Assembly (NCBI GenBank): GCA_963842525.1
Contig: CAWJGT010000003.1
Span: 896,001-960,000 of the forward strand
Length of the DNA: 64,000 nucleotides
Direction of reading: 5' to 3'
Source: an uncultured Holophagales bacterium
GTDB taxonomy: Bacteria; Acidobacteriota; Thermoanaerobaculia; Multivoradales; UBA5704
A model generated the notes under the pieces. That model saw nothing but the letters and a program-made list of their open reading frames with translations, was not told the origin of the DNA and did not search any database. Shown piece by piece: positions 4,047-63,651 of the stretch. The position numbers and the translations under genes were made by a program. Positions within the stretch are counted from its first letter, which is position 1. Each line of letters opens with the position of its first letter.

Positions 4047-4119
4047 CGTCCTTGGTCCTCCAAGTGATTCAGCTAATGGCGCATCCCTTCTACACCCTCC
4101 GGGCGCTTCCGTCAACCGC

Positions 4120-4707
4120 TCACCACCGGTAGTGGCCGATGATTTTGAAGGAGAGGAGGATGTCTTCGTTCTGGGCGCCGGCGCCGATGTTGTGGATCAT
4201 CGAGTGGCGGTTGGTGCGGGGAACGCGGTCTTCGGCCACGATCCCGATGTGGTAGAGGTTGTTGGGCAGTTGCCAGGCGACCACGTCCCCGGGCTCGTAG
4301 GGGGCATCCAGAGGCAGATGCTTCCCCTTGCGCTGCAAGAAGCGCATGAGGTTGGGCACCCGGCGGTGGTCGATGTTGCGGTCCGGGCTCCGCAGCCCCC
4401 AATTGCGCGGGTAGGCCGAGAAATTCCTCTTCATGTCCTGGTGCAGCTCGACCTGCAGATCGACGCCGATCGTGCGGAAGGCCCGGACGACCACGTCCGC
4501 GCAGACGCCCGTGTCGAGGGGGACGTCGCCGTTCGGATAGCCAAGCCGCACGTAGGAGGGGTCGTACCGGGTCGTCACCCCCACCTGCCGGGCCGCGGCG
4601 GCGGCGAGAGCCCTCCCGGTCGGGGCACGTTCGCCTGCAGTCGGGCTCGCCAGCGCCGCGAGGAGCAGCAGCGCTCCGGCCGTCCTGGTCTTGTCCATGA
4701 CCTTCAT
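4120..4707 (-). CDS. DUF1287 (YijF-like) exported protein
   Basis: YDPSY..L.YPNGDVP...GVCADVVVRA and NIDHRRVPNL motifs typical of DUF1287. Confidence 0.88.
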   Translation of the reverse strand: MKVMDKTRTAGALLLLAALASPTAGERAPTGRALAAAAARQVGVTTRYDPSYVRLGYPNGDVPLDTGVCADVVVRAFRTIGVDLQVELHQDMKRNFSAYPRNWGLRSPDRNIDHRRVPNLMRFLQRKGKHLPLDAPYEPGDVVAWQLPNNLYHIGIVAEDRVPRTNRHSMIHNIGAGAQNEDILLSFKIIGHYRW

Positions 4708-4805
4708 TCTATCTGCTTGGTACGTTCCTTGCTATAGACAGATGTGATGGGCCGGCGCTGGAGCCGGCTTCTGAAGATCTCGTGATTTCGAGAGAGGAAC
4801 ACAAC

Positions 4806-5327
4806 ATGAAACTGTCCAAGCTCATGGCTGTTCTGTTGATGACGATGCTTCCGCTCGCCTTCGCCTGCAAGACCCAGGAAGAGGCGGCGGTCGACGATGT
4901 GGACGATACCGCGTCGACGACGAGTGAGCAGGAGGTGGCAGGGGTGGACCAGCCGGGCGACCTGAACCCGGTCGAGGCCCAGGCGATGGTCGACGACGTG
5001 ACGATCGGCAAGAAGGTCGGCGCCGACGGCATGATCGCGACCGAGGACCAGGGCGACGACTTCGCTCCGGGCGATACCGTCTACGTCACCATGAACGTCG
5101 CGGATACGTCTGCGGGCTCGGCGGTGAAGGTGGCCTGGTATGGCCCCGGCGAGACCAAGATCAACGACGAGGAGAAGTCGGTTGCAACCGGCGACAAGTA
5201 CCTGACCTTCCAGGCTGATACGGCGAGCTGGGCGAAGGGCGACTACCGCGCCGAGGTCTGGATCGGAGACGAGAAGGTCAACACCCAGCAGTTCCAGATC
5301 GTGGACGCGGAAAACGCCGGCAAGTAA
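4806..5327 (+). CDS. Putative lipoprotein with C-terminal beta-sandwich-like domain
   Basis: RBS GAGGA, lipobox LAFA-C, acidic linker, GC-rich codon usage. Confidence 0.75.
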   Translation: MKLSKLMAVLLMTMLPLAFACKTQEEAAVDDVDDTASTTSEQEVAGVDQPGDLNPVEAQAMVDDVTIGKKVGADGMIATEDQGDDFAPGDTVYVTMNVADTSAGSAVKVAWYGPGETKINDEEKSVATGDKYLTFQADTASWAKGDYRAEVWIGDEKVNTQQFQIVDAENAGK

Positions 5328-5362
5328 CAGCCTGGAGCCCTTCCCTTTTCTCCCTGGACCAC

Positions 5363-5393
5363 GGCGGCGGATTGCGCCGCCTTTTTTATTTTT
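5363..5393 (+). terminator. Intrinsic terminator
   Basis: GGCGGCG-gattg-CGCCGCC hairpin followed by TTTTTTATTTTT, between convergent genes. Confidence 0.8.
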
Positions 5394-8300
5394 GGACCAC
5401 GGAGCCGTACTCCCTGGCGAGGAGAGGGTTTGCCGCCAGGGCTTTTCTCAGCGAGGCAGCCGCCTCGTCGAGGCGGACACGGCGGCGGGAGGGGTCGGCC
5501 TCCAGTCCTGCGGCGAGGCGCTGGAGGAGCCCTTGGAGGGCCAGGGCGTTCGATTCGTCGGGATTGATGGCGAGGGCCTTGCCGGTGCGGGCGATGCCCT
5601 CCCGGAGATCGGCCTCGGGCCGGCCGCCCCGGGCGAGCGTCCCTTCGGCCCGATAGCGGCACACCTGCGCCTGGGCGAGGTAGATGTCTGGAGAGCCCGG
5701 GTTCAGGGCCGCTGCCTTCCGCAGGTCCTCTTCTGCCTCCTGGAACGCGCGGTCGGGGTCTCTCTTCTGCCCGAGGGCCCAGCGGGCGGCGACGAGATGG
5801 ATCCTGGCGCGCTCCAGAAATCCGTCGGCATCGTCGGGATTGAGCCCGATGTATCGGTCAACATGAGATTCGGCGGTGCGGACCTCCGCGCTCGGGTCCT
5901 CCCCCCGCGCGCGGAGCGCCTCTGCCAGAGACCGGTGGGTGTAGGCCAGGTTGTAGATTCCGACACCGTAGTCGGGAAAACGGTTGACGGCCTCCTGAAA
6001 GCTGTCCGCCGCCTTGCGGAGATCCGGCCGCGGATCGCCTCCTCTCGGTGTCAGGTACTCGGCCAGGATCAGATGGCTGTTCCCCAGGTTGTTGTAGGCC
6101 GAGGGGCGCTCGGGGTTGACCTGGAGGGCGTGCCCCAGGACCGAGACGGCGTTCCGGGTCGCCTCGGAAGGATCCAGGCCGTGGGCACTATGGTATTCGG
6201 CGATGTCGCTCCAGGCTGCTCCCTGGTTGCTGAGAGCCTGGAAATATCCAGGGCTCACCGCGAGGCTACGGTCCCAGGCTGCGATGGCCTGGCGGGTGAC
6301 AGGCCGGGGATCGAGGCCTCGCCGGTCCTGGTCGCGGGCAAGCCGGAGCCGTGTGAGGCCGAGCTCGTTGTAGTTCGGGGCAACCTCGGGCTCCAGCTCG
6401 ATGGTCTGCTGGGCCGCCGCGATAGAACGTTGGTAGGCGGGGACCGGATCGGCCCCATGGTCCGCCTCCCACTGCCCCTGGAGACGCCAGCAGGCGGCGA
6501 TCGTCTTGTGGGCTCGGGCGAGCCTCGGCTGGACCGCGAGAGCCCGCTCCGCCCGCCGCATGGCGTCCACCAGACCGGGCCGGGGGTCGGTCCCCGTCCG
6601 CTGCTTGCGGTCCGCACGCCCATACAGCAGCCAGGCCTGATAGCTGAGGGCGTCGGCCAGCTCGGGGTCGACCTCAAGCGCCTGGTCGCAGGCCGCCAGG
6701 GCGGAGTCCTCCTCGTCCAGTGAGAATCTGCCGAGATTGCTCAGCACCCCGATCCGCCGGATCTGGCGCCAGCATTCGCCGGCGTGCAGAGGCGCGTTGC
6801 TCGGGACAATCGAAAGGAGCTTGCCATAGATGCCTCCCGCGCGATCGAAGGAGAGGAGGGCCTCTTCGCTACGGCCCTCTGCGGCCAGATCGTCGGCGCG
6901 GGATGCCCAGGCCTCAGCCTCCAGTTGCACGGCTTCGTACAGCAGCGGGTCCCGGTGCGCCGCCTGGCTCGCCTTCCGGACAGCTTCCTCGTAGCGCCCT
7001 TTGTAAAAAGCGATCAGGGCCGCAATGTAGGGGGTCTGCTGGGATCTGTCCCGATAGGCCTCTTCCAGGCGAGCGAGGGCTGGCTGGCGATAGGTCCGCC
7101 CCATCTCCTGCCGCGCGTCCTTGCGGGCATCTCCCCGGCTGCTGCTGGCGTCGACCAGGGCCTTCTCGTAAACGAGGCCGAGGGCCCGGCCCAGGGCGGC
7201 GGCCACCTCGGGGTTGCGTTCGCCTGCGTTCCACGCCTTCTCCAGGTGAGACCGCGCGGGCTCGGGCTGGCCGAGGGCGAGGTACGCCTGGCCGAGCGCC
7301 CAATGGCCCGGTCCTACGGCGATCGGCCCCAGGTGCTCCATCTCGCGGCGGATCTCGTCGAGCTCGCTGCGGAGCGCCCGTTTCGAAGCGGTCACGTCGT
7401 GCTTGGGGAGGAGCGATTCGGCGCGCACCCGCCAGCCGATCTCGGTCACCCGTTGGCCGAAGCGTTGCGCGAGGGCGGCCCGCTCGCGGGCCTGCCAGCG
7501 GGTGCGGACGATGGCGGCGCCGAGGACGAGGAGGGCCACGATGGCGGTCGCCGTCACGACGGCCAGCGCGCGGTTCTTGCGCAGCCGCTTGCCGGCCCGG
7601 TACGACCAGCTCGCGGGCCGTGCCTCGATCGGCTCGCCGTCCAGCCAGCGGTCGAGGTCGTCGGCCAGGGCGCGCGCCGATTCGTAGCGCCGGTCCGGAT
7701 TCTTCTCGATGCACTTGTGGATGATGGTCCCGAGGTCGGCGGCGACCGCCGGGGCGAGCTTGCGCAGCGGGACCGGGTCCTCCTGGATCACCCGAACCAG
7801 GGTGCTGGCCGGGTTGGGTCCTGCGAAAGGAGGCGATCCGGCGAGGAGCTCGTAGAGGACGATGCCGAGGCTGTAGACGTCGGTCCGCCGGTCGAGGGAG
7901 AGGCCTTGCGCCTGCTCCGGCGAGAGGTAGGCCGGGGTGCCGGTGATCACCCCGGTGCGGGTCAGGGCCGCGTCCCCCTGGTCCTGCGCCAGGCCGAAGT
8001 CGACGACGTAGGGGTGGTGCTCCCCGGCCTCGCCGGTCGCCACCAGGATGTTGGCCGGCTTCAAGTCGCGGTGGATCAGGCCGGTCCTGTGGGCCGCATG
8101 GACCGCCCGCGCCACGTCGCGCACGAGGCGGACCGCGAGCTCGGGCGCGATCCTGCCGCGCAGCTCCGAGAGGCTCCGCCCCTCGATGTACTGCATGGCG
8201 ATGTACGGACGGCCCTCGACCTCGCCGACCTCGTGGACCTGGCACAGATGGGGGTGCTCGACGCGCGCCTGCGCCTGGGCCTCGCGCAGGAAGCGCTCGA

Positions 8301-8532
8301 CCTGGACCTCGTCGTTGCGGTGAAGGAATTTGAGCGCGACCCGGCGGTTGAGGGAGGGATCGAAGGCCCGGAACACGGTGCCCATGCCCCCGGTGCCGAG
8401 GAGGCGCTCGATCCGGTAGCGCGGCCAATTGGCGAGGAAACGGTAATCCGCGGGGAACAGAGGCCCGAGACGGCCCTCGGTGGGTGGCTCCATGTGTAAA
8501 GGCTCAGGGGGAAAGGCTGCTCTGAGGAGCAT
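5386..8532 (-). CDS. Hanks-type Ser/Thr protein kinase with TM helix and TPR repeats
   Basis: LGTGGMGTV, VALK, HRDLKPANI, DFGLA, GTPAYLSPEQ motifs, then a hydrophobic helix and TPR-like repeats (e.g. SAYNNLGNSH). Confidence 0.93.
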   Translation of the reverse strand: MLLRAAFPPEPLHMEPPTEGRLGPLFPADYRFLANWPRYRIERLLGTGGMGTVFRAFDPSLNRRVALKFLHRNDEVQVERFLREAQAQARVEHPHLCQVHEVGEVEGRPYIAMQYIEGRSLSELRGRIAPELAVRLVRDVARAVHAAHRTGLIHRDLKPANILVATGEAGEHHPYVVDFGLAQDQGDAALTRTGVITGTPAYLSPEQAQGLSLDRRTDVYSLGIVLYELLAGSPPFAGPNPASTLVRVIQEDPVPLRKLAPAVAADLGTIIHKCIEKNPDRRYESARALADDLDRWLDGEPIEARPASWSYRAGKRLRKNRALAVVTATAIVALLVLGAAIVRTRWQARERAALAQRFGQRVTEIGWRVRAESLLPKHDVTASKRALRSELDEIRREMEHLGPIAVGPGHWALGQAYLALGQPEPARSHLEKAWNAGERNPEVAAALGRALGLVYEKALVDASSSRGDARKDARQEMGRTYRQPALARLEEAYRDRSQQTPYIAALIAFYKGRYEEAVRKASQAAHRDPLLYEAVQLEAEAWASRADDLAAEGRSEEALLSFDRAGGIYGKLLSIVPSNAPLHAGECWRQIRRIGVLSNLGRFSLDEEDSALAACDQALEVDPELADALSYQAWLLYGRADRKQRTGTDPRPGLVDAMRRAERALAVQPRLARAHKTIAACWRLQGQWEADHGADPVPAYQRSIAAAQQTIELEPEVAPNYNELGLTRLRLARDQDRRGLDPRPVTRQAIAAWDRSLAVSPGYFQALSNQGAAWSDIAEYHSAHGLDPSEATRNAVSVLGHALQVNPERPSAYNNLGNSHLILAEYLTPRGGDPRPDLRKAADSFQEAVNRFPDYGVGIYNLAYTHRSLAEALRARGEDPSAEVRTAESHVDRYIGLNPDDADGFLERARIHLVAARWALGQKRDPDRAFQEAEEDLRKAAALNPGSPDIYLAQAQVCRYRAEGTLARGGRPEADLREGIARTGKALAINPDESNALALQGLLQRLAAGLEADPSRRRVRLDEAAASLRKALAANPLLAREYGSVVQK

Positions 8533-8536
8533 AGCA

Positions 8537-8744
8537 GAACCTCACCCCCTGTCCCCCTCTCCCATCGCCCCCCCTTCCTCCGGGAGAGGGGGAACGTTGT
8601 TGGTGCTCTGAAGGGATAGCTGGCAGTTCCTTCTCAGAGGCTCTTTTTCTCAAGGCCTCGACCTTGCCTCCAAGCTCCCAGCTACGTCCCCCCTCTCCCG
8701 GTCGGTGGGGGGGCGATGGGAGAGGGGGACAGGGGGTGAGGTTC
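8537..8744. repeat. REP/MITE-like palindromic element (family A: CCTCACCCCC..CCCCTCTCCC..GGGAGAGGGG)
   Basis: About 38-bp terminal inverted repeats (GAACCTCACCCCCTGTCCCCCTCTCCCATCGCCCCCCC and its complement) with internal hairpins, intergenic. Confidence 0.8.
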
Positions 8745-8809
8745 CCGCCCGTGCACCCCCTGACTTTGACCGGCTCCTGCCTTTCTGACTGCGATACCAT
8801 CGTCCCGCC

Positions 8810-10432
8810 TTGAACCCCCCATCCCCCGACCTCCGGCTTCGCTGGACGGCCCTGGCCGTCGCGGTCACCACCGCCCTGATTCGCCTGCCGTTCGCGGCCC
8901 GCCGGATGTGGGACCACGACTCGGTCCAGTTCGCGCTCGGGGTGGAGCGCTTCGATCTCGCCGCCCACCATCCGCACCCACCCGGCTACCCGCTCTACAT
9001 CGGCATCCTGAAGCTGCTGGCCGCCGTAGGCGTCGACCCCCTGCATGGCATGGTCGCGCTCGCCATTCTGGGAGGGGGGCTCGGAGCCGGCTGCATCGTC
9101 CTGCTCACTGCCCGTCTCCTCCGCCCGATCGACGTTTCCCCTCTCCCGGCCGCTCTCTTCGCCGGCGCCCTCTACGCCACCAACCCGCTGCTCTGGTTCT
9201 ATGGCGAGCTGCCGCTGATCTACGCTCTCGAAGGAGGCATCACCGTCCTCCTCGCCTGGCTGGCTGTGCGCATGGAAGACGGGCGCCTCTCCTTCCTCCT
9301 CGCCTGCGCCGCCTTTGCTTTGGCCGGAGGGCTGCGGCAGTCGACGATGGTCCTGCTCGCGCCGCTCTTCCTCTTCGGACTGTGGCGGACCTGGCGGCGG
9401 GGGAGGCTGCCCCCGGGGCTCTTTTTCGGCGGAGCCGGTCTCGGAGCGGTGCTCGTGCTCGCCTGGCTGGTGCCGCTCTGCCGCGCCGCGGGCGGGTACG
9501 GAGCTTACCGCCGCATCGGCGCGGAGCACTTCGGGACCCTCCTGCCGGAGACCTCGATCCTCTACGGCGCCGGCTGGGGCGCGCTCGCGCACAATGTGGA
9601 GGTCCTGGTGAAGTGGGCGCTTCAGGGGGTCTTCCCCGGGGCGGTGGCGCTCGTCCTGCTCTGGATGACGGTTCCCGGCCGGATCGTTCCTGGGCTGAAG
9701 CTCCTCGCCTCCCGGCTCCCCTGGCTCCTCGCCTGGGCGCTTCCGCCGATCCTGTTCTTCGCCCTCTTCCACGTCACCAAGGCCGGGTACACCCTGATCC
9801 ATCTACCCGCCCTGCTGACGGCCCTGGCCCTGGCTGCGGCGCCGGCCTTGTCCGCGAGCCGGACCCGGACGGTGGCCGGGACGATCCTCGCCGCGGCGGT
9901 CGGCGCCGGGCTCTTCCTTTTCGGAGCCGACCGCCGTCCCGACCAGCCCCGGTGGTGGGCGGTGGTCCGCCACGAGCATAACCGCGGCGCGATCGCAGAC
10001 TTCGAGAGCGGCCTCGACCGGCTGCTGGCGGCGGTTCGGCGCTACCCGTCCGGCGAGACCGTTCTGGCGGCGGTCGAGCTGTCGGGGACCGGACCGTCCG
10101 GCGCAGACGGGTTCCTCTATCCCTGGCACCGGCATCTGCAGTGGTACCTCCCCGAGTATCCGGTCCTGCTGCTCGTCCCGGAAGAGCGCTTCGCTCTGAT
10201 GGGGGAGGGGCACCGGCCGCTCCAGCGCGAGGAGGGCCGGATCGAGGTGCCGCCGGCCACACGGCGCATCCTGTTCGTCCTCTCCGCTCCGACCGGCGCA
10301 CGGCTGCCTCTGCCACCCGGCTCCCTCGAACGCATGGGGGACGGCCTCTATCTACTCGCGGTACCTTTCCGCGGCAGCCTGCGGGCCGGGCCGCTCGTGC
10401 TCGTCCCTGCGCGGGCGCGTGACGCGGCATGA
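8810..10432 (+). CDS. Multi-pass membrane protein, GT-C fold (DUF2723/ArnT/PMT-like) glycosyltransferase
   Basis: WDHDSVQF...HPHPPGYPLY first periplasmic loop, TNPLLWFY, many TM helices. Confidence 0.65.
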   Translation: MNPPSPDLRLRWTALAVAVTTALIRLPFAARRMWDHDSVQFALGVERFDLAAHHPHPPGYPLYIGILKLLAAVGVDPLHGMVALAILGGGLGAGCIVLLTARLLRPIDVSPLPAALFAGALYATNPLLWFYGELPLIYALEGGITVLLAWLAVRMEDGRLSFLLACAAFALAGGLRQSTMVLLAPLFLFGLWRTWRRGRLPPGLFFGGAGLGAVLVLAWLVPLCRAAGGYGAYRRIGAEHFGTLLPETSILYGAGWGALAHNVEVLVKWALQGVFPGAVALVLLWMTVPGRIVPGLKLLASRLPWLLAWALPPILFFALFHVTKAGYTLIHLPALLTALALAAAPALSASRTRTVAGTILAAAVGAGLFLFGADRRPDQPRWWAVVRHEHNRGAIADFESGLDRLLAAVRRYPSGETVLAAVELSGTGPSGADGFLYPWHRHLQWYLPEYPVLLLVPEERFALMGEGHRPLQREEGRIEVPPATRRILFVLSAPTGARLPLPPGSLERMGDGLYLLAVPFRGSLRAGPLVLVPARARDAA

Positions 10433-10473
10433 GACAATCGGCTCCAGACAAGCAAGGAGGTGGAGGTCGTGCG

Positions 10474-11025
10474 ATGAGAAACCGGCTCCGTCTGGGTCTC
10501 GGCCGGACTCTCCTGGCTCTTCTCTCGGGGCTCTGCCTCGTGCCGGCGGCGGCCGACGAGCCAAGCCGTTGGCGCGACCGGATCACCGAGGAGCAGGGGA
10601 TCGACTACCGGGGTGGCGATTACCATTCGTTCCGCGCTCGCAATGTGAGCGCCTGCAGGTCCGCGTGCCGGCGGGACGACCGCTGCCGGGCCTACACGCA
10701 CAACCTGGAGACCGACACCTGCTACCTCAAGGACCGGCTCGGCAGCCCAGAGGGTCGGCGGAGCACGGTCAGCGGGGTCAAGGAGGAGCGGGGATGGTCC
10801 GGCGTCGGGCCTCACCGAGAAGACGGGGCGTCGATTACAGGGGCGGCGACTACGACTCCTTCCGCACGCGCAGCCTCTCTGCCTGCAATCGGCCTGTGGG
10901 CGGGACGGCCGGTGCCGGGCCTATACCCATAACGAAAAGACCGATACCTGCTACCTGAAAGGCCGGATCGGCGATTCCCAGAAACCGGCGTGAAACCACG
11001 AGCGGTGTCAAGACGCGGCGGTTGA
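10474..11025 (+). CDS. Secreted protein with two tandem PAN/Apple domains (frameshifted in second copy)
   Basis: Signal peptide, then DYRGGDY.SFR.R.(V/L)SAC.SAC.RD.RCRAYTHN..TDTCYLK..G....(S/T)(T/V)SGVK twice. The second copy is split across frames. Confidence 0.7.
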
Positions 11026-12641
11026 GCCGGCCGGTCCCGCGGCTCCGGTTCGACGAGGCGAGCCGGCCGGGGACGCTCTCCGCGAGCTTTTCACGCGCGG
11101 TGTGGCGCGGTTTGCCCGCGGCATTGCTCGCCACGGTGGTCCTGGCCGTCTATGCACCCACCGTGCGCAACGGCTTCGTGTCGGACGACTACCTGTTCCT
11201 GCAGATGGCCGCCACCGGCCCGGGGAGCGTGCTGGCCTACCACGGCGGCTATCACTACTACCCGCTCGGCATGGGCCTGTTCTTCCTCCAGTACGAGCTC
11301 TGGGGGTTCGATCCGTCGTGGTTCCACGGGGTGGCGATCGCCCTCCATTTCGCGGCCTCGCTGCTGGTCGTCCGGCTCGGGCGCGCCCTCGGGCTGCCGG
11401 CCGCGGTGTCCTGGGCGGCCGCCTTCCTCTTCGCCACCAACGGCCTGATCCACGAAGTCCCCTTGTGGGCCATCGGGGTCCTGTATTCGCTGTCGACCTG
11501 CCTCTGCCTCGCCGCTCTCCTGGCCTGGCTCGATCACGTGCGGACCTCCCGGTGGCGGTCCCAGGCCGTCTTTCTGATGCTTTTCGCCGCGGCCCTGCTC
11601 GCGCACGAGCAGTCCATCACCCTCCTCGCGGTGTGCGGGCTCGCCGCGGCCCTGGTGGCGGGGCGGCCGGAGCCCCTCGCTCGGCGCGCCAGGGAGCTGC
11701 TCCCGGCAGCCGTCCTCGTCGCCGGCTACCTGGGGCTCAAGCTGGCGCTCAGCGACGGCACCGACCTCACGCCGGGCCTCGCGGAGGGCCTCGCGAGCCG
11801 GGCCGGCCCCTTTGCGCTGCACCTGCTGCGGGTCACGGTGCCGAACCTCCCCAAGGCGTGGGCCTGGCAGATCCTCAGCCCGCCGCTGCCGGCCTTGGCG
11901 GCAAACCTCTGCCGCGCGGCGCTGGTCGCCGCGGCCGTGCTGGCCTTCCTGCGCCTGGCGCCGCGCCTCCAGCTCCTGGCGCTGTGGACAGCCCTCCACG
12001 TGGGTGTGATGGTCCTCGCGATCGGCATGGCCTCCCGCCATTACTACCTGCCCCTGGCCCCGGCCTCTCTGCTCGTGGCGAGCCTCCTCGCCCTCCTGGC
12101 CGGGAAGCTCGCCGGGCGCCGCAGCGAGGGGCCCCGCCGGTGGATGCTGCCCCTGCTGGTTGCTCCTCTGGTGGTCGCCGGCCTGGCGACCCTGAGCTTC
12201 CGCAAGGAGGTCTGGGCCGAAGCCGCGGCCCTGGGCCAGGACCTCCTCCGCCAGGTGGCCGCGGCGCAACAGGAAGCCCCGGCGGCCAGGGCCCTCTACG
12301 TCGTCGACCTGCCGGACGGCCTGCCCCTGGGCGAATCGGATCCTGCCTATGTCTTCCGGATCGGGTTCGAAGCTGCGCTGCACCTGCGGCAGATCGGGCC
12401 TTTCCAGGCGATTACGCGCCTGCACGGAGATCCCCTGGCGCCCTGGACGGAGCCGTTCGGCAGGCCGGCCACGGACGGCGAGATCCAGGCGCTCGCGGCG
12501 GATCCGGCGAACCTCGTCCTGCGCTACGATGCCGCGATGCAGCGTTTCCGGCGCGTGACGGAGACCGGCTCGCTCGCACCCGGCTCGCCGCACTCATCTG
12601 ATAGGAGCCCCTTTGCTCCGAGGAGGAAGACGAATGCGTAG
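11022..12641 (+). CDS. Multi-pass membrane protein, GT-C-like (PMT/TMTC-type) glycosyltransferase
   Basis: GFVSDDY acidic loop motif, YYPLG, FH...I.LH, HEVPLW, AHEQS, RHYYLP, many TM helices. Start codon uncertain. Confidence 0.65.
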   Translation: MSRPVPRLRFDEASRPGTLSASFSRAVWRGLPAALLATVVLAVYAPTVRNGFVSDDYLFLQMAATGPGSVLAYHGGYHYYPLGMGLFFLQYELWGFDPSWFHGVAIALHFAASLLVVRLGRALGLPAAVSWAAAFLFATNGLIHEVPLWAIGVLYSLSTCLCLAALLAWLDHVRTSRWRSQAVFLMLFAAALLAHEQSITLLAVCGLAAALVAGRPEPLARRARELLPAAVLVAGYLGLKLALSDGTDLTPGLAEGLASRAGPFALHLLRVTVPNLPKAWAWQILSPPLPALAANLCRAALVAAAVLAFLRLAPRLQLLALWTALHVGVMVLAIGMASRHYYLPLAPASLLVASLLALLAGKLAGRRSEGPRRWMLPLLVAPLVVAGLATLSFRKEVWAEAAALGQDLLRQVAAAQQEAPAARALYVVDLPDGLPLGESDPAYVFRIGFEAALHLRQIGPFQAITRLHGDPLAPWTEPFGRPATDGEIQALAADPANLVLRYDAAMQRFRRVTETGSLAPGSPHSSDRSPFAPRRKTNA

Positions 12642-19102: not shown

Positions 19103-20760
19103 CGTCCCACCTCCGCCATCGCCAACTCAGGTTTTTCTCCCCCTCTCCCGGGGGAAGGGGGGGCGATGGGAGAGGGGGCCGGGGGGTGAGGGGCCGGCCG
19201 CAACGTCGCCTCGGCGACCGCCGTCCGCTTCAGCCCCTGCTGGAATTGCTGGAGCGTCGCCTCCAACGCCGGCAGGCTCGGCCGCAGGAAATGGTTCGGC
19301 GCGACGCCGATCCACAGCATGAAGACGCAGAGCGGGACGAGCGATGCCCACTCGCGCAGGTCGAGGTCGCGCAGGCCCCGGTTCTCCTCCTTGGTGAGCG
19401 GCCCCCACACGGTGAGCTCGATCATCTTGAGCAGGTAGACCGCGGCGAAGATGACGCCCACCGTCGCCAGGGCCGCCGGCCAGCCGAGCGCGCGATAGCT
19501 GCCGGCGAGGATCAGGAACTCGCCGACGAAGCCATTGAGCGCCGGCAGGCCCACCGAGGCCAGCGACGAGAAGATCAGGAAGAAGGCAAAAACGGGGATC
19601 ACCTTGGCCAAGCCGCCGAAGTCCTCGAACTTCTTCGTGTGCCGCCGGTCGTAGAGCATGCCGACGAGGAGGAACAGCGCGCCGGTCGACAGGCCGTGAT
19701 TGACCATCTGGAGGAGCGCTCCCTGCCAGGCGATGAGATCGAAGGCGAGGAGGCCGAGCATCACGAAGCCCAGGTGGGCGATCGAGGAGTAGGCGACCAG
19801 CTTCTTCATGTCCGTCTGGACCCAGGCCACGAACGCGCCGTAGAGAATGCCCACGATCGCGAGGCCGACGAGCAGCGGCTGGGCCGCCTCGCTCGCATGC
19901 GGGAAGAACGGCAGCGCGAACCGCAGGAAGCCGTAGGTGCCGAGCTTGAGCAGGATGCCGGCCAGGATCACCGAGCCGCCGGTGGGCGCCTCGACGTGCG
20001 CATCCGGCAGCCAGGTATGGACCGGGAACATGGGGACCTTGACCGCGAAGGCGAGGGCGAATGCCGCGAAGAGCCAGATCTGCTGCTGGATGGGGAAGTC
20101 GAGCCGCAGCATGTCGTCGTACGCGAAGCTCCAGATGTCATTGTTCAGGTTGTGGAACGTCCAGCCCATCCAGAGGATGGCGATCAGCATCAGCAGGCTG
20201 CCGCCCATGGTGAAGAGGAAGAACTTGACCGCCGCGTAGACCCGCCGTTCGCCGCCCCAGATCCCGATGATCAGATACATCGGGATCAGCATGACCTCCC
20301 AGAAAATGTAGAAGAGGAACAGATCCCAGGCGAGGAGCGTCCCCAGCACGCCGGTGGTCAGGACCAGGAACGCCGCGCCGAAGCCCGGCCAGTGGCGGTC
20401 GATGCCGCGCCAGGAGCCGAGGATCACGATCGGCAGCAGAAAGATGCCGAGCAGTGCCAGCGGCATGGAGATGCCGTCCATCGCCAGGTCGTAGCCGATG
20501 CCGAAGCGGGAGATCCACTCGATGCGTCCGCCGCCCGCTCCCAAATCATGGACCAGCGGGAAGGTGCCGTCCGGGCTCATGTGCGCGGCCGCGTACATCA
20601 CGCCCAGGGCGAGCTCGACGAGCGATACGAGCAGGACATAGACCTTGGTCGCCCGCTCGGCGCTGCGCGGGAAGAAGATCAGGGGCAGGGCCGCCAGCGT
20701 GGGAAAGAAAACCAGCCGGGTCAGCGTGTTGCCGAGGAGCAGGTTGAGGAGCGTGTCCAT
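19099..20760 (-). CDS. nuoM: NADH-quinone oxidoreductase subunit M
   Basis: FWEVMLIPMY, KVPMFPVHTWLPDAHVEAPT, KKLVAYSSIAH. Confidence 0.95.
   Translation of the reverse strand: MDTLLNLLLGNTLTRLVFFPTLAALPLIFFPRSAERATKVYVLLVSLVELALGVMYAAAHMSPDGTFPLVHDLGAGGGRIEWISRFGIGYDLAMDGISMPLALLGIFLLPIVILGSWRGIDRHWPGFGAAFLVLTTGVLGTLLAWDLFLFYIFWEVMLIPMYLIIGIWGGERRVYAAVKFFLFTMGGSLLMLIAILWMGWTFHNLNNDIWSFAYDDMLRLDFPIQQQIWLFAAFALAFAVKVPMFPVHTWLPDAHVEAPTGGSVILAGILLKLGTYGFLRFALPFFPHASEAAQPLLVGLAIVGILYGAFVAWVQTDMKKLVAYSSIAHLGFVMLGLLAFDLIAWQGALLQMVNHGLSTGALFLLVGMLYDRRHTKKFEDFGGLAKVIPVFAFFLIFSSLASVGLPALNGFVGEFLILAGSYRALGWPAALATVGVIFAAVYLLKMIELTVWGPLTKEENRGLRDLDLREWASLVPLCVFMLWIGVAPNHFLRPSLPALEATLQQFQQGLKRTAVAEATLRPAPHPPAPSPIAPPSPGRGGEKPELAMAEVGR
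19137..19191. repeat. Family A REP half-element inside the 3' end of nuoM
   Basis: CCCCCTCTCCCGG..GGGGGGCGATGGGAGAGGGGG..GGGGGTGAGG matches 8687-8741. Confidence 0.75.
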
Positions 20761-28801: not shown

Positions 28802-31711
28802 ATGCCCGAGCCAGGCAAGCCCGACTTCTTCGTCAGCTACAACAAGGCCGACCGCGCCTGGGCGGAGTGGATCGCCTGGGACTTGGAGGAGACCGGCTAT
28901 TCGGCGGTCCTCCAGGCCTGGGATATCCAGCCGGGGCAGAACTTCGTCCTCCAGATGCAGCGCGCGACGACGGAGGCGGAGCGCACCCTGGCGGTCCTGT
29001 CGCCCGACTACCTGACCTCACTGTTCACCCAGCCCGAATGGGCCGCCGCCTTCGCTATAGACCCGACAGGTCAGGACGGCAAGCTGGTGCCGGTCCGGGT
29101 CCGGGAGTGCGCCCCTCGGGGCCTGCTGTCGCAGATTGTCTACATCGATCTGGTCGGCCTCGCCGAGGAGACAGCCAGGGAGACCCTCCGGGCCGGAGTG
29201 CAGAAGGGGAGGGCCAAGCCGCCGGTGCGTCCGTCGTTCCCGGAACGGGCTCGGGAAGCCCAAGCGCGCCCCAGCTTCCCCGACGAACCGTCGCCGGACA
29301 AGCCGCCCCTTTCTTATTTCTATAGGTCCATGGCCCCGCCCCGGGAGACCTTCGTCCACCGCAGTGAATACGACCGGGTCGTCGAGGCGCTCCTCGCTGG
29401 CCCCAAGGGCGAGCGGGCCGGAACGGTCGGCATCACTACGGCCCTGCGCGGCGCGGGCGGCTTCGGCAAGACGGCCCTGGCCATGGAGGTCTGCTGGGAC
29501 GAGCGGATCCAGCTCGCCTATCCCAACGGCATTCTATGGGCGACGATGGGCGAGACCATCGAAGCCTCCGGGCGGCTCATCCAGATCCGGGAGATTCTCC
29601 GCTGGTGGACCGGCAAGGAGCCACCCTCCTTTGAGACTGCGACCGCCGCCGGCGCCCGTCTCCGCGAGGTGCTGGCCGGCAAGCGGGTACTTCTGGTCGT
29701 CGACGACGTCTGGAAGCCCCAGGACGTCGAGCCCTTCCGCGGACTCGGCCCCGGCTCCGCCCTGCTCGTGACCATTCGCGACAGCCGCACCCTGCCGCCG
29801 GAGCGGACCGCCATTATTGAAGTGGACGCCATGGCCTCCCCCGAGGCCGTGGCCCTCCTCGGCGCGCGCCTGCCAGAGGACGACACGGCCCGGCTCGGTG
29901 CCTTGGCGGCCCGCCTCGGCAAGTGGCCCCTGCTCCTCAAGCTCGTCAACCGGCAGCTCCGGGAGTTGGTGGAGGAGGATGAGCTGCCGCTGCAACAGGC
30001 TCTCCGAGAGGTCGAAGAGGCCCTGGAGGCGGAGGGGGTGACGACATTCGATCAGGAAGATGCCGAGAGCTGCCGGTTGGCTGTGGCGCGGACCTTGGAG
30101 GTCAGCCTGAAGCGCTTGGCCGAGGCGGACCGCGAGCGTTACGGTACGCTCGCCATCTTCCCGAAGGACGAGAACATCCCGCAACCGATCCTCCAGCGGC
30201 TCTGGGGCTTGCCGCCGCGCGAGGTCCACAAGCTCTGCGGCCGGCTCCACCACCTCTCGCTCCTCCTGCGCTTCGATCATACGGCCAACACGGTCCGCCT
30301 CCACGACGTGTTCCGAGCCTGCCTGCTTAAGAGGCACGAGACCGAGATCCCGGCCTTCCATTGCCGCCTGCTCGACGGCAGCCGCCCCGCCTCAGGCCGG
30401 TGGGCGGACCTGCCGAAGACCGAGAGCTATCTGTGGTGGTCCCTGGCCTACCACCTGATCGGGAGCGGACAATCCGGAGTCTGCCGGGACCTCCTGCTGG
30501 ACTTTGATTTCCTCCAGGCGAAGCTCGCGGCGAGCACAATGGTCAAGTTGCTCGGCGACTACTCCTGGTTTCTGGAGCAAAGGGACGAAGAGCTACGGCT
30601 GGTTGAAGGCGCCTTGCGGCTCTCGGCCCAAGTGCTCGCGAAGGATCGGGATCAGCTCGCGCCTCAGCTCCTCGGCCGGCTGCTGGACCGGGAAGAGCCT
30701 GGGATCCAACGCTTGCTCCAGAGGGCTCGGGAAAGACATCCTGGAGCCTGGCTCCGGCCGACACGGGCGACCTTCGTACGTCCAGGGGGCGCCCCCTTGA
30801 TCCGTACCCTGGAAGAGCGCGCCAATGGAGTCACAGCGGTAGCCGTGGTAGACGGCCGCCGCGCGGTGTCCGGCTCAAATGACGGGACGCTGCGGGTCTG
30901 GGACCTGGAAAGTGGCGAGACCTTGCGCACCTTGGAAGGGCACGCCGCTGGGGTCACAGTGGTAGCCGTGGTAGACGGCCGCCGCGCGGTGTCCGGCTCA
31001 AATGACGGGACGTTGCGGGTCTGGGACCTGAAAAGCGGCGAGACCCTGCGCACCCTGCAAGGGCACGCCAATGAGGTCACAGCGGTAGCCGTGGTAGACA
31101 GCCGTCGCGCGGTGTCCGGCTCAAACGATGGGACGCTGCGGGTCTGGGACCTAGAAAGCGGCGAGACTCTGCGCACCCTGCAAGGGCACACCCATTGGGT
31201 TACGGCGGTGGTGATGGTAGACGGTCGACACGCGGTGTCCGGCTCGATCGATAGGACGCTTCGGTTGTGGAATCTCGACAGCGGTGAGACCCTCCGCATC
31301 CTGGAAGGGCACAGCGCTGGGGTCAAGGCGTTGGCCGTGGTGGACGGCCGTCGAGCGGTGTCCGCCTCGAACGACCGAACGCTGCGGTTGTGGGACCTCG
31401 CCAGCGGCGAGACCCTGCTTACCCTGGAAGGGCACACCTATTGGGTCACAGCAGTGGTGGTGGACGGCCGTCGCGCGGTGTCCGGCTCGGCCGACGGAAC
31501 GCTGCGGTTGTGGGACTTGGACAGCGGCAACGGGACGCTGCGGTTGTGGGGAAAAACCAAAAAAAATCTCGCTGTGTTGATCCTGGATACGCCTCCAACC
31601 GCTCTTGCCTTCTCCCCAGCGAGCAGTACGCTGGTTGTGGGAGATCAGGCGGGCCGGGTACACTTCTTTGCCATCGAATCCGAGTCCGAGGAACCGCCAC
31701 GCCTTTCCTGA
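28802..31711 (+). CDS. NLR-like STAND protein: TIR + NB-ARC + helical + WD40 (Apaf-1-like architecture)
   Basis: TIR (DFFVSYN..DRAWAEWI...PEW), Walker A GAGGFGKT, Walker B LLVVDDVW, VRLHD (MHD-like), six GH..WD repeats plus a terminal blade. Confidence 0.9.
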   Translation: MPEPGKPDFFVSYNKADRAWAEWIAWDLEETGYSAVLQAWDIQPGQNFVLQMQRATTEAERTLAVLSPDYLTSLFTQPEWAAAFAIDPTGQDGKLVPVRVRECAPRGLLSQIVYIDLVGLAEETARETLRAGVQKGRAKPPVRPSFPERAREAQARPSFPDEPSPDKPPLSYFYRSMAPPRETFVHRSEYDRVVEALLAGPKGERAGTVGITTALRGAGGFGKTALAMEVCWDERIQLAYPNGILWATMGETIEASGRLIQIREILRWWTGKEPPSFETATAAGARLREVLAGKRVLLVVDDVWKPQDVEPFRGLGPGSALLVTIRDSRTLPPERTAIIEVDAMASPEAVALLGARLPEDDTARLGALAARLGKWPLLLKLVNRQLRELVEEDELPLQQALREVEEALEAEGVTTFDQEDAESCRLAVARTLEVSLKRLAEADRERYGTLAIFPKDENIPQPILQRLWGLPPREVHKLCGRLHHLSLLLRFDHTANTVRLHDVFRACLLKRHETEIPAFHCRLLDGSRPASGRWADLPKTESYLWWSLAYHLIGSGQSGVCRDLLLDFDFLQAKLAASTMVKLLGDYSWFLEQRDEELRLVEGALRLSAQVLAKDRDQLAPQLLGRLLDREEPGIQRLLQRARERHPGAWLRPTRATFVRPGGAPLIRTLEERANGVTAVAVVDGRRAVSGSNDGTLRVWDLESGETLRTLEGHAAGVTVVAVVDGRRAVSGSNDGTLRVWDLKSGETLRTLQGHANEVTAVAVVDSRRAVSGSNDGTLRVWDLESGETLRTLQGHTHWVTAVVMVDGRHAVSGSIDRTLRLWNLDSGETLRILEGHSAGVKALAVVDGRRAVSASNDRTLRLWDLASGETLLTLEGHTYWVTAVVVDGRRAVSGSADGTLRLWDLDSGNGTLRLWGKTKKNLAVLILDTPPTALAFSPASSTLVVGDQAGRVHFFAIESESEEPPRLS
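30797..31552 (+). repeat. Near-identical 123-bp WD40-coding tandem repeats
   Basis: GACCT..AAAG.GGCGAGAC recurs at 30902, 31025 and 31148 (123-bp period). Confidence 0.9.
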
Positions 31712-32546: not shown

Positions 32547-32731
32547 GGGCACCCGCTGCCCTTCCTTGAAGGCGAGCCCGTTAAGGTTGGGCAGTCACTG
32601 CCCTTCGTTACGGGGTGACCCGTTAAGGTTGGGCAACCGCTGCCCTTCACTAAGAGGGCACCCGTTAAGGTTGGGCAGTCGCTGCCCTTCGTTAAGAGGT
32701 GACCTGTTAAGGTTGGGCAGTCACTGCCCTT
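32547..32731. repeat. 42-bp tandem repeat, about 4.4 copies, each with a GGGCAG-NNN-CTGCCC-type hairpin
   Basis: Units start at 32547, 32589, 32631, 32673 and 32715. Confidence 0.9.
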
Positions 32732-59052: not shown

Positions 59053-60049
59053 ATGCACGCGACAATCCTCACCCTCCTGACCCTCCTCCCGGTCCAGGCA
59101 CCTCCCCCGAAACCCCCGGAGCCGGCGAGCCTGATCGAGATCCATGTCAATCCGCTGGTAGACCTCCACTACTGGGTCCGCAGGCTGGCGGCCGAAAGCG
59201 GCGAGCTGCCGGCGATCGACGGTCTGCCTGCCGCGGTGGCGGCCGTGCGACGGGTGGGCACCGATATCGGCGGCCCGATGGCCTGGGGTGTGATCGATGG
59301 CGGCCTGGTCGAAGCCGGGAGCGTGGACGAGCTCGCCCGCCTCGCCGCCGCTCTCCCCGAGACGTTCCAGACGAGGGGCGGGCGCGAGGTCCGGCTCCGG
59401 GAGGCGGTGGCGCGCCTTGCCGAGGCATACCGCCCTCTGGAGAAGCTTTTTCTTGAAAAGATCTGGCCTGTGCACCGGAAAGCCTCCGAAGAGGTGGCGG
59501 CCGGGCTGCGCCGCGACGTCCTGCCGAAGGCGCCGGAGGTCTTCGCCGACCTGAGCCGCCACCTGGAGGTTCCGGTCCCGAGCCGGCCGGTCCCTGTCTA
59601 CCTCGTGGGGGCCGCTCCCTTTCCGCGAGCGTTCACCCACAGGTCGCAGAGCGGCGGGGTCTGCATCGTGGCTCTGGCGGGGATGCCGGCGTCCGAGGCC
59701 CGGGAGACGATGGTCCACGAGCCGATCCATGCGCTGGACCTGGCTGGAGGGGAGGGGGACGTGCTCTCCAAATTGGACTCCCGGCTGCAGGGCTGTTCCC
59801 GGCGCGTCTCCCCAGGAGGTCCATGACTTCGTCCACACCCTGATGTTCGTGCAGGCGGCGGGGACGGTGCGGAAGGTCCTGGACCCGGGCCACAAGGACT
59901 ACGGTGACACCGCGGGCTACTATCCCAAGGTGCCCCGCGCTACTGCCGTGGTGCGCCCCGCCTGGGAGGCCTACCTCCGCGGCGAAATCTCCCGGGACGC
60001 CGCCCTGGAGCGGATCGCCGCGGGGTTCGCCCAGGCTACAATTCCATGA
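59053..60049 (+). CDS. Secreted HEXXH hypothetical protein (frameshift near 59790)
   Basis: Signal-like N-terminus and VHEPIH. Continues as VHDFVHTLMFVQAAG...WEAYLRGE in the frame of 59729..60049. Confidence 0.6.
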
Positions 60050-63000
60050 ATGCCTGAGAGCCACACGGCCTTCCTCAGCTATGCCCATCAGCATGAAGCG
60101 TGGGTGAGGACGCTGCACGCCAACCTGGAGCGGTGCCTTGCCCATCTCGGGCGGCCGGGGACGGTGTTCCTCGATCAGGTGGACCTGGGGGCCGGCCGTT
60201 CCTGGGTGGGGCAGCTTCAGGCGGGGCTCGAAAAAGCCGGCCGGCTGATCCTGGTGGCGACTCCCGAAGCGCTTGCTTCGCCGCGGGTCGCCGACGAGTG
60301 GGAGACCTTCATCGCCCGCCGCCGCGACTGGCGGCAGGGGAATCTCCAGGTCGTCCTGCTGATCGATGCGCCTCTGCCGCCCTTCCTGGATGGCGTCCAG
60401 CGGGTGGATTTCCGGCGCGGCGGCGAAGCGCAATACCGCCGGGCGCTGCAGGAGCTGCTGTCGGGCCTCCTTGGCCACGAAGACCGGCGCGACCTGCCGG
60501 CGCTCTCTCCAGAGATCGAGATCCCGGCGGCGCCCGATCCCGGTCTGCCTAAGGAGCTGCGCGGCCGGTTGGTGGCCTGGCTGGCGCCGGCCGTGCGGAG
60601 CAGGATGCGCCGCCTGGCAGTCGCTTCGGGGCTCCGCCTGGAAAGCAATGCCCTGGAGGGACACCCCTCACCCGAATGCGCTGCCTCGGCAGCCCTGGTC
60701 CTCGCCACGGGAAAGGATGACCCGGTCCAAGGGGCTTTGCGGATCGTCGACGTTCTGGCCGAGCTGGTGGAGGAGGAAGAGCCCGAGCGGGCGGCCGAGC
60801 TGACGCCGCTCCGCGCCGAGCTCGAAGAGCTGCGTGGCGCCGGCCCCGAGCGCGGCCTCCTGCGCGTCTACCTGGAGGCGGTCGACCGGGACCATGCGGA
60901 GCTGGTGCCCTACTTCCAACGCCAGGCCGAGCTGGCCCTGCTCGACCGGGTGTACGTGCAACTCGAGCTGAGGCCGGAAGAGCGCGGTTTTGCCGCGCGG
61001 GAAGGGACCGGCGGGGGAGCTCCTGCGGCCGCTGGGCCTGCGGGAGCTGTTGGAGCTCGATCCGGCGGAGCACCGCTGGGTTACCCGCCGCTGGGTGGTG
61101 CGGGGCGATCCGGGAGCGGGCAAGACGACGCTCCTGCGGCACCTCGCCGCCACCCTGGCGAAGGAAGAAAAGGAAAATCCGCGCCCGCGCCGGGTGCCGG
61201 TCTTCGAATCGCTGCCGCGCCTGGTCCGGGAGCGCGACCCGCTGCTGAACCGGCTGGCCCGCCGGCTGGAGCGCGCCGGCCATCCGGCCCAGGGGCTCCA
61301 GGCCGTGCTCGACCGGGCGGGACAGGAAGGACGGCTGGTCCTTCTCTTCGACGGCCTGGACGAGGTGCCGAAAGAGGAGCGCGACGAGGCCGAAAAGATG
61401 CTGCGCGACGTCGCCGCCCTCTGGCCGTCCTCCACGCTCGTCGTCACCACCCGTCCCATCGGTTATCACCGGCTCGGCCATGAGCTCCTCGAGCTGGACC
61501 TCCTGCCGCTCGACGCCGGCCATCGCCGGGAGTTCCTTGCCCGCTGGTTCGGCCGGCGTGCCGGCGCCCCCGATTTCGCGCGCGCCGACCGCGAGCTTCC
61601 GGTCCTCGAAGAAGATCCCGGGCTGCGGGAGCTGGCAGGCAACCCGCTCTACCTCACTCTGATGGCGCTGCTGCTGGAGAAAGGGACCGCGCCCGACCGC
61701 AACCGCACCCGGCTCTACGACCAGGTCTTCGAGCTGCTGCTCGAAGGCAAACACCGTCCCGATGGCGAGCCCATCGACTGCCAGGCCGGCGTGCGGGAGG
61801 TCCTGCGCCACCTCGGCTACGGCATGACGCTGGACAACCGGGACACCGAGCCGGTGACCGCCCTGGAGGCGCGGCTCTACCAGCCGGAAGCCGACCGCCT
61901 GCGCGAGCCCCTCGAGCGCGTCGCCCGCTGGCGGACGAGCCTGCGGCCCTTCCTCGATGACCTGTCGCGCAAGACCGGCATCCTCGGCCCGCACGACGGC
62001 CCGGACGCCGATTGGCGCTTCTGGCACCGAACTTTCCGCGAGGCCCTGGCAGCCGAGCGGCTCGAGCAGTTAGCGGCAAGCCGTGGCAACGAGGCCATCC
62101 TGGCGTTCGCCCGTGAGATTGCCGGCGACGAGAGCCGCTGGGCCGAGCCCTTCGCCCTGCTCACCGGCCGGATCGCCGACCCGGACGGCCTCGTCCGTGC
62201 CCTGGTCGAGGCCAACCGCTCCCTCGGCCTGCGCGCCCTGGCCACGGCCCCGGAGACTGCGGCCCGAGACCCTCACGGCGGTCCTCGCGCTCAGCGAGCA
62301 ATGGCAGGAGAGGGCCGAGGTCTACCGCCGCCTCCCCGAGCTCGTCGGCGACCCGGAGCGCGCCCTGGCACTCCTCGACCGGCTGCGCCGGCAGACCCGC
62401 AACGGCAACGACCTCTACTTCCTGGACCTCGCCGTGCGCTCGGCCGGCGAGCGCTGGCCGGACCACGCCCGAAAGGCCGCCGATTTCCTCAGCCGGTTCT
62501 ACAGCCACATCCCGCCACCGCCGGACGACCTCTTCCAGTGGATCGACACGCCCCTCGACGGCCGGGTCCCCCTGTGGCGTGAGATCCCGGCCGGCCGGTT
62601 CTGGATGGGAAGCCCGGAGGGAGAAGGGGACAAAGACGAGCACCCCCGCCACGAGGTGGTGCTCACCGCGCCTTTCCGGATCGGCGCGGTGCCGGTCACC
62701 AACGCACAGTACCTGGCCTTCGACCCGGAGCATCAGGCGACCCCGTGGGAAGGGGTCTCTGCGGCCGACCTACGCTTCCATCCCGCCGAGAGCGTCACCT
62801 GGTTTGAGGCCATGTCGTTCTGCCGCTGGCTTGCCGCGCGAGCCCCTTGGGCGCGCGGCGCCCGGTTGCCGCTGGAAGAGGAATGGGAGCACGCCTGCCG
62901 TGCTGGGACCGAAACTCGGTACTGGAGCGGAGACGACGACGCCGGCCTGGAACGCGTCGGGTGGTACGGAGCCAACTCCGAGGACCGGACGCACCGCGTT

Positions 63001-63321
63001 GGCGAAAAACCGGCGAACGCCTGGGGTCTTTACGACGTGCACGGCAATGTATGGGAGTGGACGGCGAGCCTTTTCACCCAGCAGTATGAAATCCCCGAAG
63101 GTGGGGTCCGCCTCGATTCCGCGGCCGTCGAGCCGCCTCTTGAGACCGAGCCCAGCGGCGCGAGGCGCGTGATGCGTGGTGGGTGCTCTTGGGATGTCGC
63201 GGTCTGGACGCGTGCGGCGGTTCGCGGCATCGGGAGCCCGGGCCTCGTGATCGGGAACCAGGGCTTTCGCGTTCTGCTCCCCGGCGCCCCGAGCTTCCAG
63301 GCTATAGATCTTGGATCATAG
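60050..63321 (+). CDS. NLR-like protein TIR + NACHT + FGE-sulfatase (C-type-lectin fold), about 1090 aa, two apparent frameshifts (near 61000 and 62250); probable DGR target
   Basis: TIR (AFLSYAH...VFLD...DEW), NACHT (GDPGAGKT, LLFDGLDE, VTTR, NPLYL, FWHRTFREAL), FGE (F.MGS...E.P.H.V, PVTNAQY, EWEHACRAG, NAWGLYDVHGNVWEW, RV.RGG...GFR). Confidence 0.85.
63160..63295 (+). other. Putative DGR variable region (VR) and 3' homing end
   Basis: RVMRGGCSWDVAVWTRAAVRGIGSPGLVIGNQGFRV. Non-scaffold codons are mostly NNY or NGG, derivable by A-to-N change from AAY/AGG template codons. Confidence 0.6.
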
Positions 63322-63651
63322 AGGGTGTGTTCTATGCGGCCGGCACGGCAGCCGGCGGCAAGAATTGACCCTTTTGCTGCCGCTGGCGGTGAAGAAAGCG
63401 GTGACGGTGACCCCCGAAAGGCAGGTTTCCGGCCGGCCGGGCAGGAGCCGATGATCCAATCGTGGAGCCCCGACCGCCCAGCATTGTCCGTATCTTGCTG
63501 GCTCTGCCACCCCAATGACCTTGGTGGCCAGCTTTGCGCCGCCAGATGGTCAAGATGCTGCCGTTTTCGGCAAAGCGTGCCGGAAAGGTGTAAGCGATGT
63601 CTGGTGTAAGAGTCTGCGGACTGCGGCGTTCTCTGAAAGGAGGACCCGAGC

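Follow-up and report, generated by a model that had tools for sequence, protein, structure and literature searches.

The described systems closest to the locus reported here are diversity-generating retroelements (DGRs) that diversify lectin sensors carried on STAND NTPases, some of them with TIR effectors. The main text of PMC10907252 proposes these proteins as antigen sensors, a proposal made there without an experimental test, and PMC7159879 also seems relevant. Like Thiohalocapsa PB-PSB1 DGR 3 and 6 and the 'clade 5D' loci, as they are described in the text of PMC10907252, the present locus has a central NACHT/STAND NTPase and a C-terminal FGE-type lectin that holds the variable repeat (VR). 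It also resembles the loci of that paper in having two targets per template repeat (TR) and a cellular, non-phage host; the N-terminal effectors of that paper include TIR, and it also considers trans-acting or remote targets. Unlike the loci in that account, the second target here is 430 kb away and not adjacent, and an HTH_17 gene is located between the target and Avd. The string 'Acidobacteri' does not occur in the main text of PMC10907252.

Three other described systems share part of this arrangement. The category 'b' targets of Wu et al. 2018 (b7-b11; PMC5758913) likewise have an FGE-sulfatase CLec1 VR joined to TIR-like and NTPase domains, and the text of that paper lists only nine DGRs with mixed Toll-like-receptor/NTPase combinations. 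TvpA of Treponema denticola (2y3c), which is itself a DGR target (PMC5758913), has in common with the present target an FGE-type C-type lectin fold and a C-terminal VR, and its DGR also has remote targets; the same text describes TvpA as acting at cell surfaces and without TIR and NACHT modules. The Bordetella phage BPP-1 DGR (mtd-avd-TR-brt; PMC5758913) runs in the same order, from target-VR through avd and TR to the RT, the gene in the avd position being Avd-like here. Its TR and VR likewise differ specifically at adenines, its target likewise has a lectin fold, and it has the counterparts of two candidate elements of the present locus, an invariant 3' segment rich in G+C (IMH-like) and an inverted repeat that follows the VR. 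Compared with BPP-1 as described in that paper, the present element is chromosomal with no phage genes nearby, and its target is a TIR-NACHT protein of cytoplasmic type where the phage has a tail fibre. The lectin domain here belongs to the FGE subtype, and an HTH gene and a second, remote VR are additional.

The locus therefore adds to a described class of targeted hypermutation systems, and the supplementary tables of PMC10907252 and PMC5758913 may already list it or a near-identical one. Its contribution is a DGR that is complete in content, with an NLR-like TIR-NACHT-lectin target and a remote second target, from an Acidobacteriota-like genome. The biological role of the class, as hypervariable intracellular sensors, is so far hypothetical.

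The window, that is, the whole stretch of 64,000 nucleotides that was analysed, belongs to a genome of 9.95 Mb in 34 contigs. The cassette runs past its end, and positions beyond the end are given as window-equivalent coordinates, which are those of genome contig C3 minus 896000; all features of the element are on the + strand. When window positions 63100-63330 were searched against their own genome, two further copies were found, at C3:960646-960790 and C3:1390914-1391149. The first copy matches the VR part alone. The second also matches the scaffold upstream and so is part of a paralog, referred to here as target 2, which is 90% identical to target 1, lies 430 kb away and contains VR2.

The copy at C3:960646-960790 is the TR (window-equivalent 64646-64790; 145 nt with 27 adenines). 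It is located 1,495 nt downstream of VR1 and 646 nt past the window end, between the bAvd-like gene and the RT. VR1 (63151-63295; 145 nt) takes up 48 codons of target 1, the last but for 8, and is 89% identical to the TR. An ungapped comparison of the two over all 145 positions gives 16 mismatches, which fall on 15 of the 27 TR adenines and on 1 of the 118 non-adenines (Fisher exact p=2.7e-12). The sole non-adenine mismatch, T to G at TR position 70, adjoins a substituted A. VR2 differs from the TR by 10 substitutions, all 10 of them at TR adenines (p=1e-8), plus one extra T. The mutated span of VR1 (63184-63253, TR positions 34-103) contains 20 TR adenines, of which 19 are in codon position 1 or 2 when the span is read in frame; there are four AAY codons, and 18 of the 20 adenines are substituted if VR1 and VR2 are pooled. 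Its 16 variable codons would allow about 9e10 possible peptides.

Because the TR copy adjoins Avd and the RT, and because the differences in both VR1 and VR2 are restricted to adenines, 63151-63295 is very probably the variable repeat of a chromosomal DGR, the cassette having the order target-HTH_17-Avd-TR-RT.

The initial annotation had inferred a DGR variable region from VR1 alone, and the partners predicted from that reading were all found, namely, a TR, a bAvd-like gene, an RT and a remote paralogous VR. The last of these, VR2, is in a second FGE-domain gene, the kind of gene in which the annotation had suggested looking. It had also proposed a search for a second copy in which the mismatches would be limited to A and not spread over all four bases; the search found two copies, and 15 of the 16 mismatches are at TR adenines. 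The C-terminal peptide at VR1 reads ...RRVMRGGCSWDVAVWTRAAVRGIGSPGLVIGNQGFRVLLPGAPSF... and contains the scaffold residues (RV.RGG, W, R.A.R, P and GFRV) as they had been described. The suspicion that GGCSW is a product of adenine mutagenesis was also borne out, with GGSSW as its origin via AGC to TGC. Other details were only partly right. The TR that had been predicted agrees with the real one at 87 of 96 bases and has A at 15 of the 16 differing sites, but it also over-calls A at 7 sites where VR1 and the TR agree. The repeat had been placed at 63160..63295, of which the 3' end stands, but the true block starts 9 nt further 5', at 63151. As for the A-rich source codons, AAC/AAT, AGG and GAG were largely correct, but several ATC, GAC, TCT and GGC codons had been mistaken for AAC or TAT. 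A DGR variable region is thus recognisable from its own codons alone, the blind TR reconstruction having been 91% correct.

The component genes of a DGR, a putative Avd among them, are all present downstream of VR1. The first gene after the target encodes an excisionase-type helix-turn-helix protein (63652 to window-equivalent 64251; Pfam HTH_17, E=6.2e-10). It is followed by an Avd-like gene (window-equivalent 64218-64667), whose assignment comes from two matches that are both below the cut-off. One is to NCBIfam DivGenRetAVD (E=2.7e-11, profile 6-104 of 104, 43.7 bits versus an 80-bit cut-off), and the other is to Pfam bAvd (37 bits versus a cut-off of 40). The position and size of the gene are those fitting for Avd, and its protein has no match among the PDB sequences.

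The RT (window-equivalent 64937-65945) begins after a spacer of 147 nt that follows the TR, and it has one extra base near 65609; the RT fragment is below the Pfam RVT_1 cut-off. It has hundreds of relatives of about 335 amino acids, with identities of up to 73% among homologs of 331-337 amino acids. The named relatives of the locus come from Thermoanaerobaculia/Acidobacteriota, Planctomycetota and Phycisphaerae MAGs. Among solved structures, the RT matches 8ub7_A best (E=3.9e-23, labelled 'Reverse transcriptase'), in an alignment that takes in the ...GIPIGS.TSQLFA... stretch, and we take this structure to be the RT of the Bordetella phage DGR.

Two segments around VR1 are candidates for recognition elements. 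VR and TR have 42 invariant nt in common after the last substituted adenine and diverge right after 63295. This invariant 3' part of the block holds a 13-nt run of G+C only (63279-63291) and is a candidate IMH-like segment, its arrangement being the one given for IMH/IMH* in the text of PMC5758913. The second segment is an imperfect inverted repeat (63323-63371), which starts 28 nt past VR1, just after the stop codon. At its core, six base pairs of GCCGGC (63339-63344 and 63351-63356) would form a stem around a 6-nt loop. The inverted repeat is present in the centroid fold of both VR flanks, and of the 64 nt that hold it the paralogs share 61, compared with 90% identity in the genes. The fold energy of the full 124 nt is no better than that of shuffles (z=-0.9), and the inverted repeat is therefore only a candidate.

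If the element works like the Bordetella phage prototype, a complex of the RT and Avd would reverse transcribe a TR-containing RNA and misincorporate opposite its template adenines. The cDNA would then take the place of the VR, with the G+C-rich invariant 3' segment and the inverted repeat downstream as guides. Homing of this type could recode up to 16 codons at the tip of the lectin fold, which corresponds to the approximately 9e10 peptides mentioned above.

Target gene 1 (60050-63321; about 1,090 codons, in three frames in this assembly) encodes a TIR - NACHT - FGE-sulfatase/C-type-lectin protein. Read across two frame breaks, it matches Pfam TIR_2 (E=1.2e-18), NACHT (E=6.3e-16) and FGE-sulfatase (E=2.4e-42). 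The FGE-sulfatase part is in the last open frame (62083-63321), which ends ...RRVMRGGCSWDVAVWTRAAVRGIGSPGLVIGNQGFRVLLPGAPSFQAIDLGS, and the NACHT and TIR_2 parts are in the two frames before it. TIR_2, NACHT and FGE-sulfatase are also found by Pfam on the largest open frame of the paralog. The translation of target 1 contains the motifs GDPGAGKTT and LLFDGLDE, presumably Walker A and B. Among solved structures, the C-terminal domain is most similar in sequence to 2y3c (E=3.3e-18), which is labelled Treponema denticola variable protein 1.

The same domains recur in the relatives of the paralog. In a table of 120 listed relatives, read by eye, nearly all (all but one fragment) have NACHT PF05729, most have FGE-sulfatase PF03781 and most have TIR_2 PF13676; some have Mrr_cat or CHAT, either additionally or in place. 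The source names of the listed relatives point to Thermoanaerobaculia/Acidobacteriota MAGs. Alignment of the C-termini of 61 relatives gives, in qualitative terms, conserved RV.RGG...R.A.R...GFRV..P columns, and the columns between them that have high entropy are at the TR adenine codons.

With these domains, the target has the layout of an effector (TIR), an NTPase switch (NACHT) and a sensor (lectin fold), as in NLR-like STAND proteins. PADLOC matched no named defence system for the target, and the placement of its NACHT NTPase between effector and sensor domains is that of bacterial NACHT (NLR-related) anti-phage proteins. The protein is likely to be a hypervariable ligand sensor, and we infer that ligand binding would drive oligomerisation of NACHT and TIR-mediated signalling or cell death.

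As assembled, the RT and both targets contain frame breaks, six in all. Alignment of target 1 to the paralog places one extra base in a run of five G at 61013-61017 and an extra A at 62256. In target 2 there are three, at C3:1390782, 1390892 and 1391009, and one of these lies inside VR2. In the RT, alignment places one extra base before the YVDD motif, between ...HFVKRE and LKVPGYLRYVDD.... A 7-state Viterbi segmentation based on codon usage, with 1,561 long ORFs as the training set, puts the target 1 breaks at 61013 and 62255, at most 1 base from the positions given by alignment. A frameshift scan by GC3 phase missed the known breaks, as GC1 and GC3 have nearly the same value in this genome.

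Should all six extra bases be genuine, the system would be dead, with true pseudogenes for its RT and for both targets, and the VRs would be frozen records of the last homing. Several observations agree with a decayed relic of this kind. The breaks affect all three genes, and several of them, e.g., the extra A at 62256, are outside homopolymers. Six breaks in about 7.5 kb is also a higher density than the genome average (for the strict detector described below, 2 were observed versus 0.34 expected, Poisson P of about 0.05), and all six are insertions, compared with 621 versus 622 for the two directions genome-wide. In addition, neither Avd nor the C-terminus of the RT is called coding by the genome-trained codon model.

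However, frame breaks are abundant in ordinary genes of this assembly. By a loose definition, a same-strand switch after which the old frame has no stop codon for 30 nt or more, there are 1,243 frame switches genome-wide, some of them true gene junctions. A strict definition, which demands a direct switch, at least 150 codons on both sides and no stop in the old frame for 60 nt or more, gives 453. From the strict junctions, 20 were drawn at random after the 2 DGR junctions had been excluded. At four of these, one Pfam domain is split, with contiguous profile positions on either side; eight have domains from a single type of multidomain protein on both sides, three have a match on one side only and five have no match. 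The mid-domain splits, which include domains of PKS/NRPS genes, are in Acyl_transf_1 (2-123 and 127-268), in FAD_binding_2 (91-283 and 290-414) and twice in Condensation. The differences between near-identical repeat copies are also rich in indels, with 15 gap openings versus 43 mismatches in 8.7 kb; over about 1,350 nt, two of the near-identical pairs show a single gap and 0 mismatches.

The genome-wide breaks and the indel-rich repeat differences are the signature of an indel-prone consensus, and so the breaks in the RT and in both targets are probably consensus errors of the assembly. Furthermore, the coding signal of target 1 is undiminished after each of its breaks, and the agreement with the TR at non-adenine positions, which is 117/118 for VR1 and 118/118 for VR2, argues against a long neutral decay. 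A dead element is therefore, in our judgement, a rather unlikely reading of the locus, though one to be taken seriously. With hundreds of single-base frame breaks in the assembly, pseudogene calls would be unsafe for any of its genes.

Other frame breaks in the window are near 212, 49208 and 59792. The frame-broken genes include the one immediately before target 1, a histidine kinase that lacks HisKA and ones in which PKS/NRPS, FAD-binding and PLD domains are split internally. A junction at 52475 (d=42) was rejected as a frame break, as it is a normal RadC/LarC-type gene boundary.

The relationship between the two targets bears on how the element has been used. Upstream of the VR, the paralogs are 89.9% identical over 3,096 nt, but between their VRs a single one of the 118 non-adenine positions differs (P of about 5e-5). 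At the same time, VR1 and VR2 have different substitutions at the same adenines. Both VRs are homogenised to one TR. The near-identity of the non-adenines against a gene divergence of about 10%, together with the differing adenine substitutions, indicates that the TR overwrote both VRs after the paralogs had diverged. The element thus very probably works in trans, the same TR having overwritten VR2 430 kb away. According to the text of PMC5758913, non-phage DGRs can have remote targets at distances above 100 kb.

Alternatively, VR2 may never have been served in trans, and the paralog would be a duplicate of target 1 that retained a VR from before the duplication. No cassette is located beside VR2, as this proposal would have it. 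Moreover, the 64 nt downstream of both VRs are outside the TR and are also unusually alike, with the 61 of 64 identities noted above, so that a cause other than homing, such as selection or gene conversion, can preserve the likeness. A VR merely retained would nevertheless have to match the TR at every non-adenine while the gene around it diverged by 10%, and it would have to have been substituted differently from VR1 at the same adenines; remote targets are, as stated, on record for non-phage DGRs. We therefore consider a retained VR to be improbable and prefer homing in trans.

VR1 and VR2 appear to be the full set. In a scan of the whole genome on both strands, with the TR adenines ignored and up to 20 mismatches allowed at the 77 non-A positions, the TR (0 mismatches), VR1 (1 mismatch) and VR2 (11 mismatches, with a register shift) were recovered, and no further VR was found in the 9.95 Mb.

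Related loci in other genomes show the same type of repeat. Twenty-five related RT loci were found and 12 of them were examined, a repeat pair being counted as A-biased if at least 75% of its mismatches are at adenines of the RT-proximal copy. Nine of the 12, from other phyla, have A-biased TR/VR pairs, and three loci have two VRs. For example, the locus L042 (Phycisphaeraceae MAG, 3428-12361) consists of an FGE-target, an HTH_17 gene, a TR and an intact RT of 344 amino acids, followed by a convergent TIR-NACHT-FGE target; the ORF at the position of Avd has no Pfam match. This arrangement indicates that the gene order, including the HTH gene, is conserved across phyla.

Two of the other loci, L041 and L054, keep the order target-HTH_17-TR-RT as L042 does, and in all three the RT is immediately followed by a convergent second target. 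Nothing corresponds to it after the RT of the present genome, whose second target is found 430 kb away instead.

An ordinary partial gene duplication, in which the adenine-limited differences arose by chance or from a compositional bias, would account for the existence of a repeat and for nothing beyond that, and it is exceedingly improbable, given the adenine restriction in two independent VRs with the p values stated above (2.7e-12 and 1e-8), the location of the invariant copy between Avd and the RT and the same pattern at nine of the 12 related loci.

The element is flanked by a direct repeat of 34-37 nt. The left copy (59998-60034) is at the end of the upstream ORF, where it encodes ...AALERIAAGFA..., and the right copy (window-equivalent 65948-65984) comes directly after the RT stop codon and encodes ...AALERIVAGFAKK-stop. 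The two copies are 95% identical over 37 nt (E=3e-8 for one genome) and 97% identical over 34 nt. Their spacing is 5,950 nt, with exactly target 1, HTH, Avd, TR and RT between them. The right copy encodes a near-identical C-terminus of the upstream gene and is followed by a terminator-like hairpin that is shared with the convergent pnp gene.

This arrangement looks as if the whole cassette had entered a host gene at its 3' end and had duplicated the target site. One could go further and suggest that the 5.95-kb unit is a mobile 'sensor plus diversifier' island, which duplicated 34-37 bp on insertion, thereby left the host gene a near-identical C-terminus and now also diversifies an older or dispersed paralog in trans. 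We put this forward tentatively and doubt it more than we credit it. A synteny comparison of the insertion site within the genus is uninformative, with a weak (44%) partial match to the upstream gene in 1 of 5 other genomes, and no comparable flanking direct repeat was found at 9 related loci. Relatives with the same gene order do occur in Planctomycetota/Phycisphaerae MAGs. If the suggestion is true, DGR-armed NLR-like sensors would spread between phyla as self-contained cassettes.

The genome contains nine RT-like loci. A-biased repeat pairs occur at the DGR locus only, and the eight others have neither A- nor T-biased repeat pairs nearby.

A multi-copy element of about 2 kb, with an RT that is 27% identical to the DGR RT, is found at C9:858246, C12:18494, C6:149666 and C19:363429, among other places. 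It is probably a group II intron, and no A-biased repeats are near it. The genome also has G+C-rich dispersed short repeats, which look REP- or MITE-like. They comprise a 61-nt pair in the window, at 8689-8749 and 19139-19199, and families of about 110-160 nt with many copies around other RT-like loci on contigs C9 and C14.

The window encodes a second NLR-like gene (28814-31540, + strand). It has an N-terminal TIR_2 domain (E=3.4e-34) and a C-terminal WD40 part, which is made of 123-nt tandem repeats (30680-31528). About 500 central residues are without an assignment among the best 25 families, and no DGR repeat is associated with the gene. Downstream of it is a non-coding tandem array (32547-32731) with a 42-nt period, about 4.2 copies and an 84-nt super-period, and the 42-nt units each hold a short palindrome (GGGCAG.. 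..CTGCCC).
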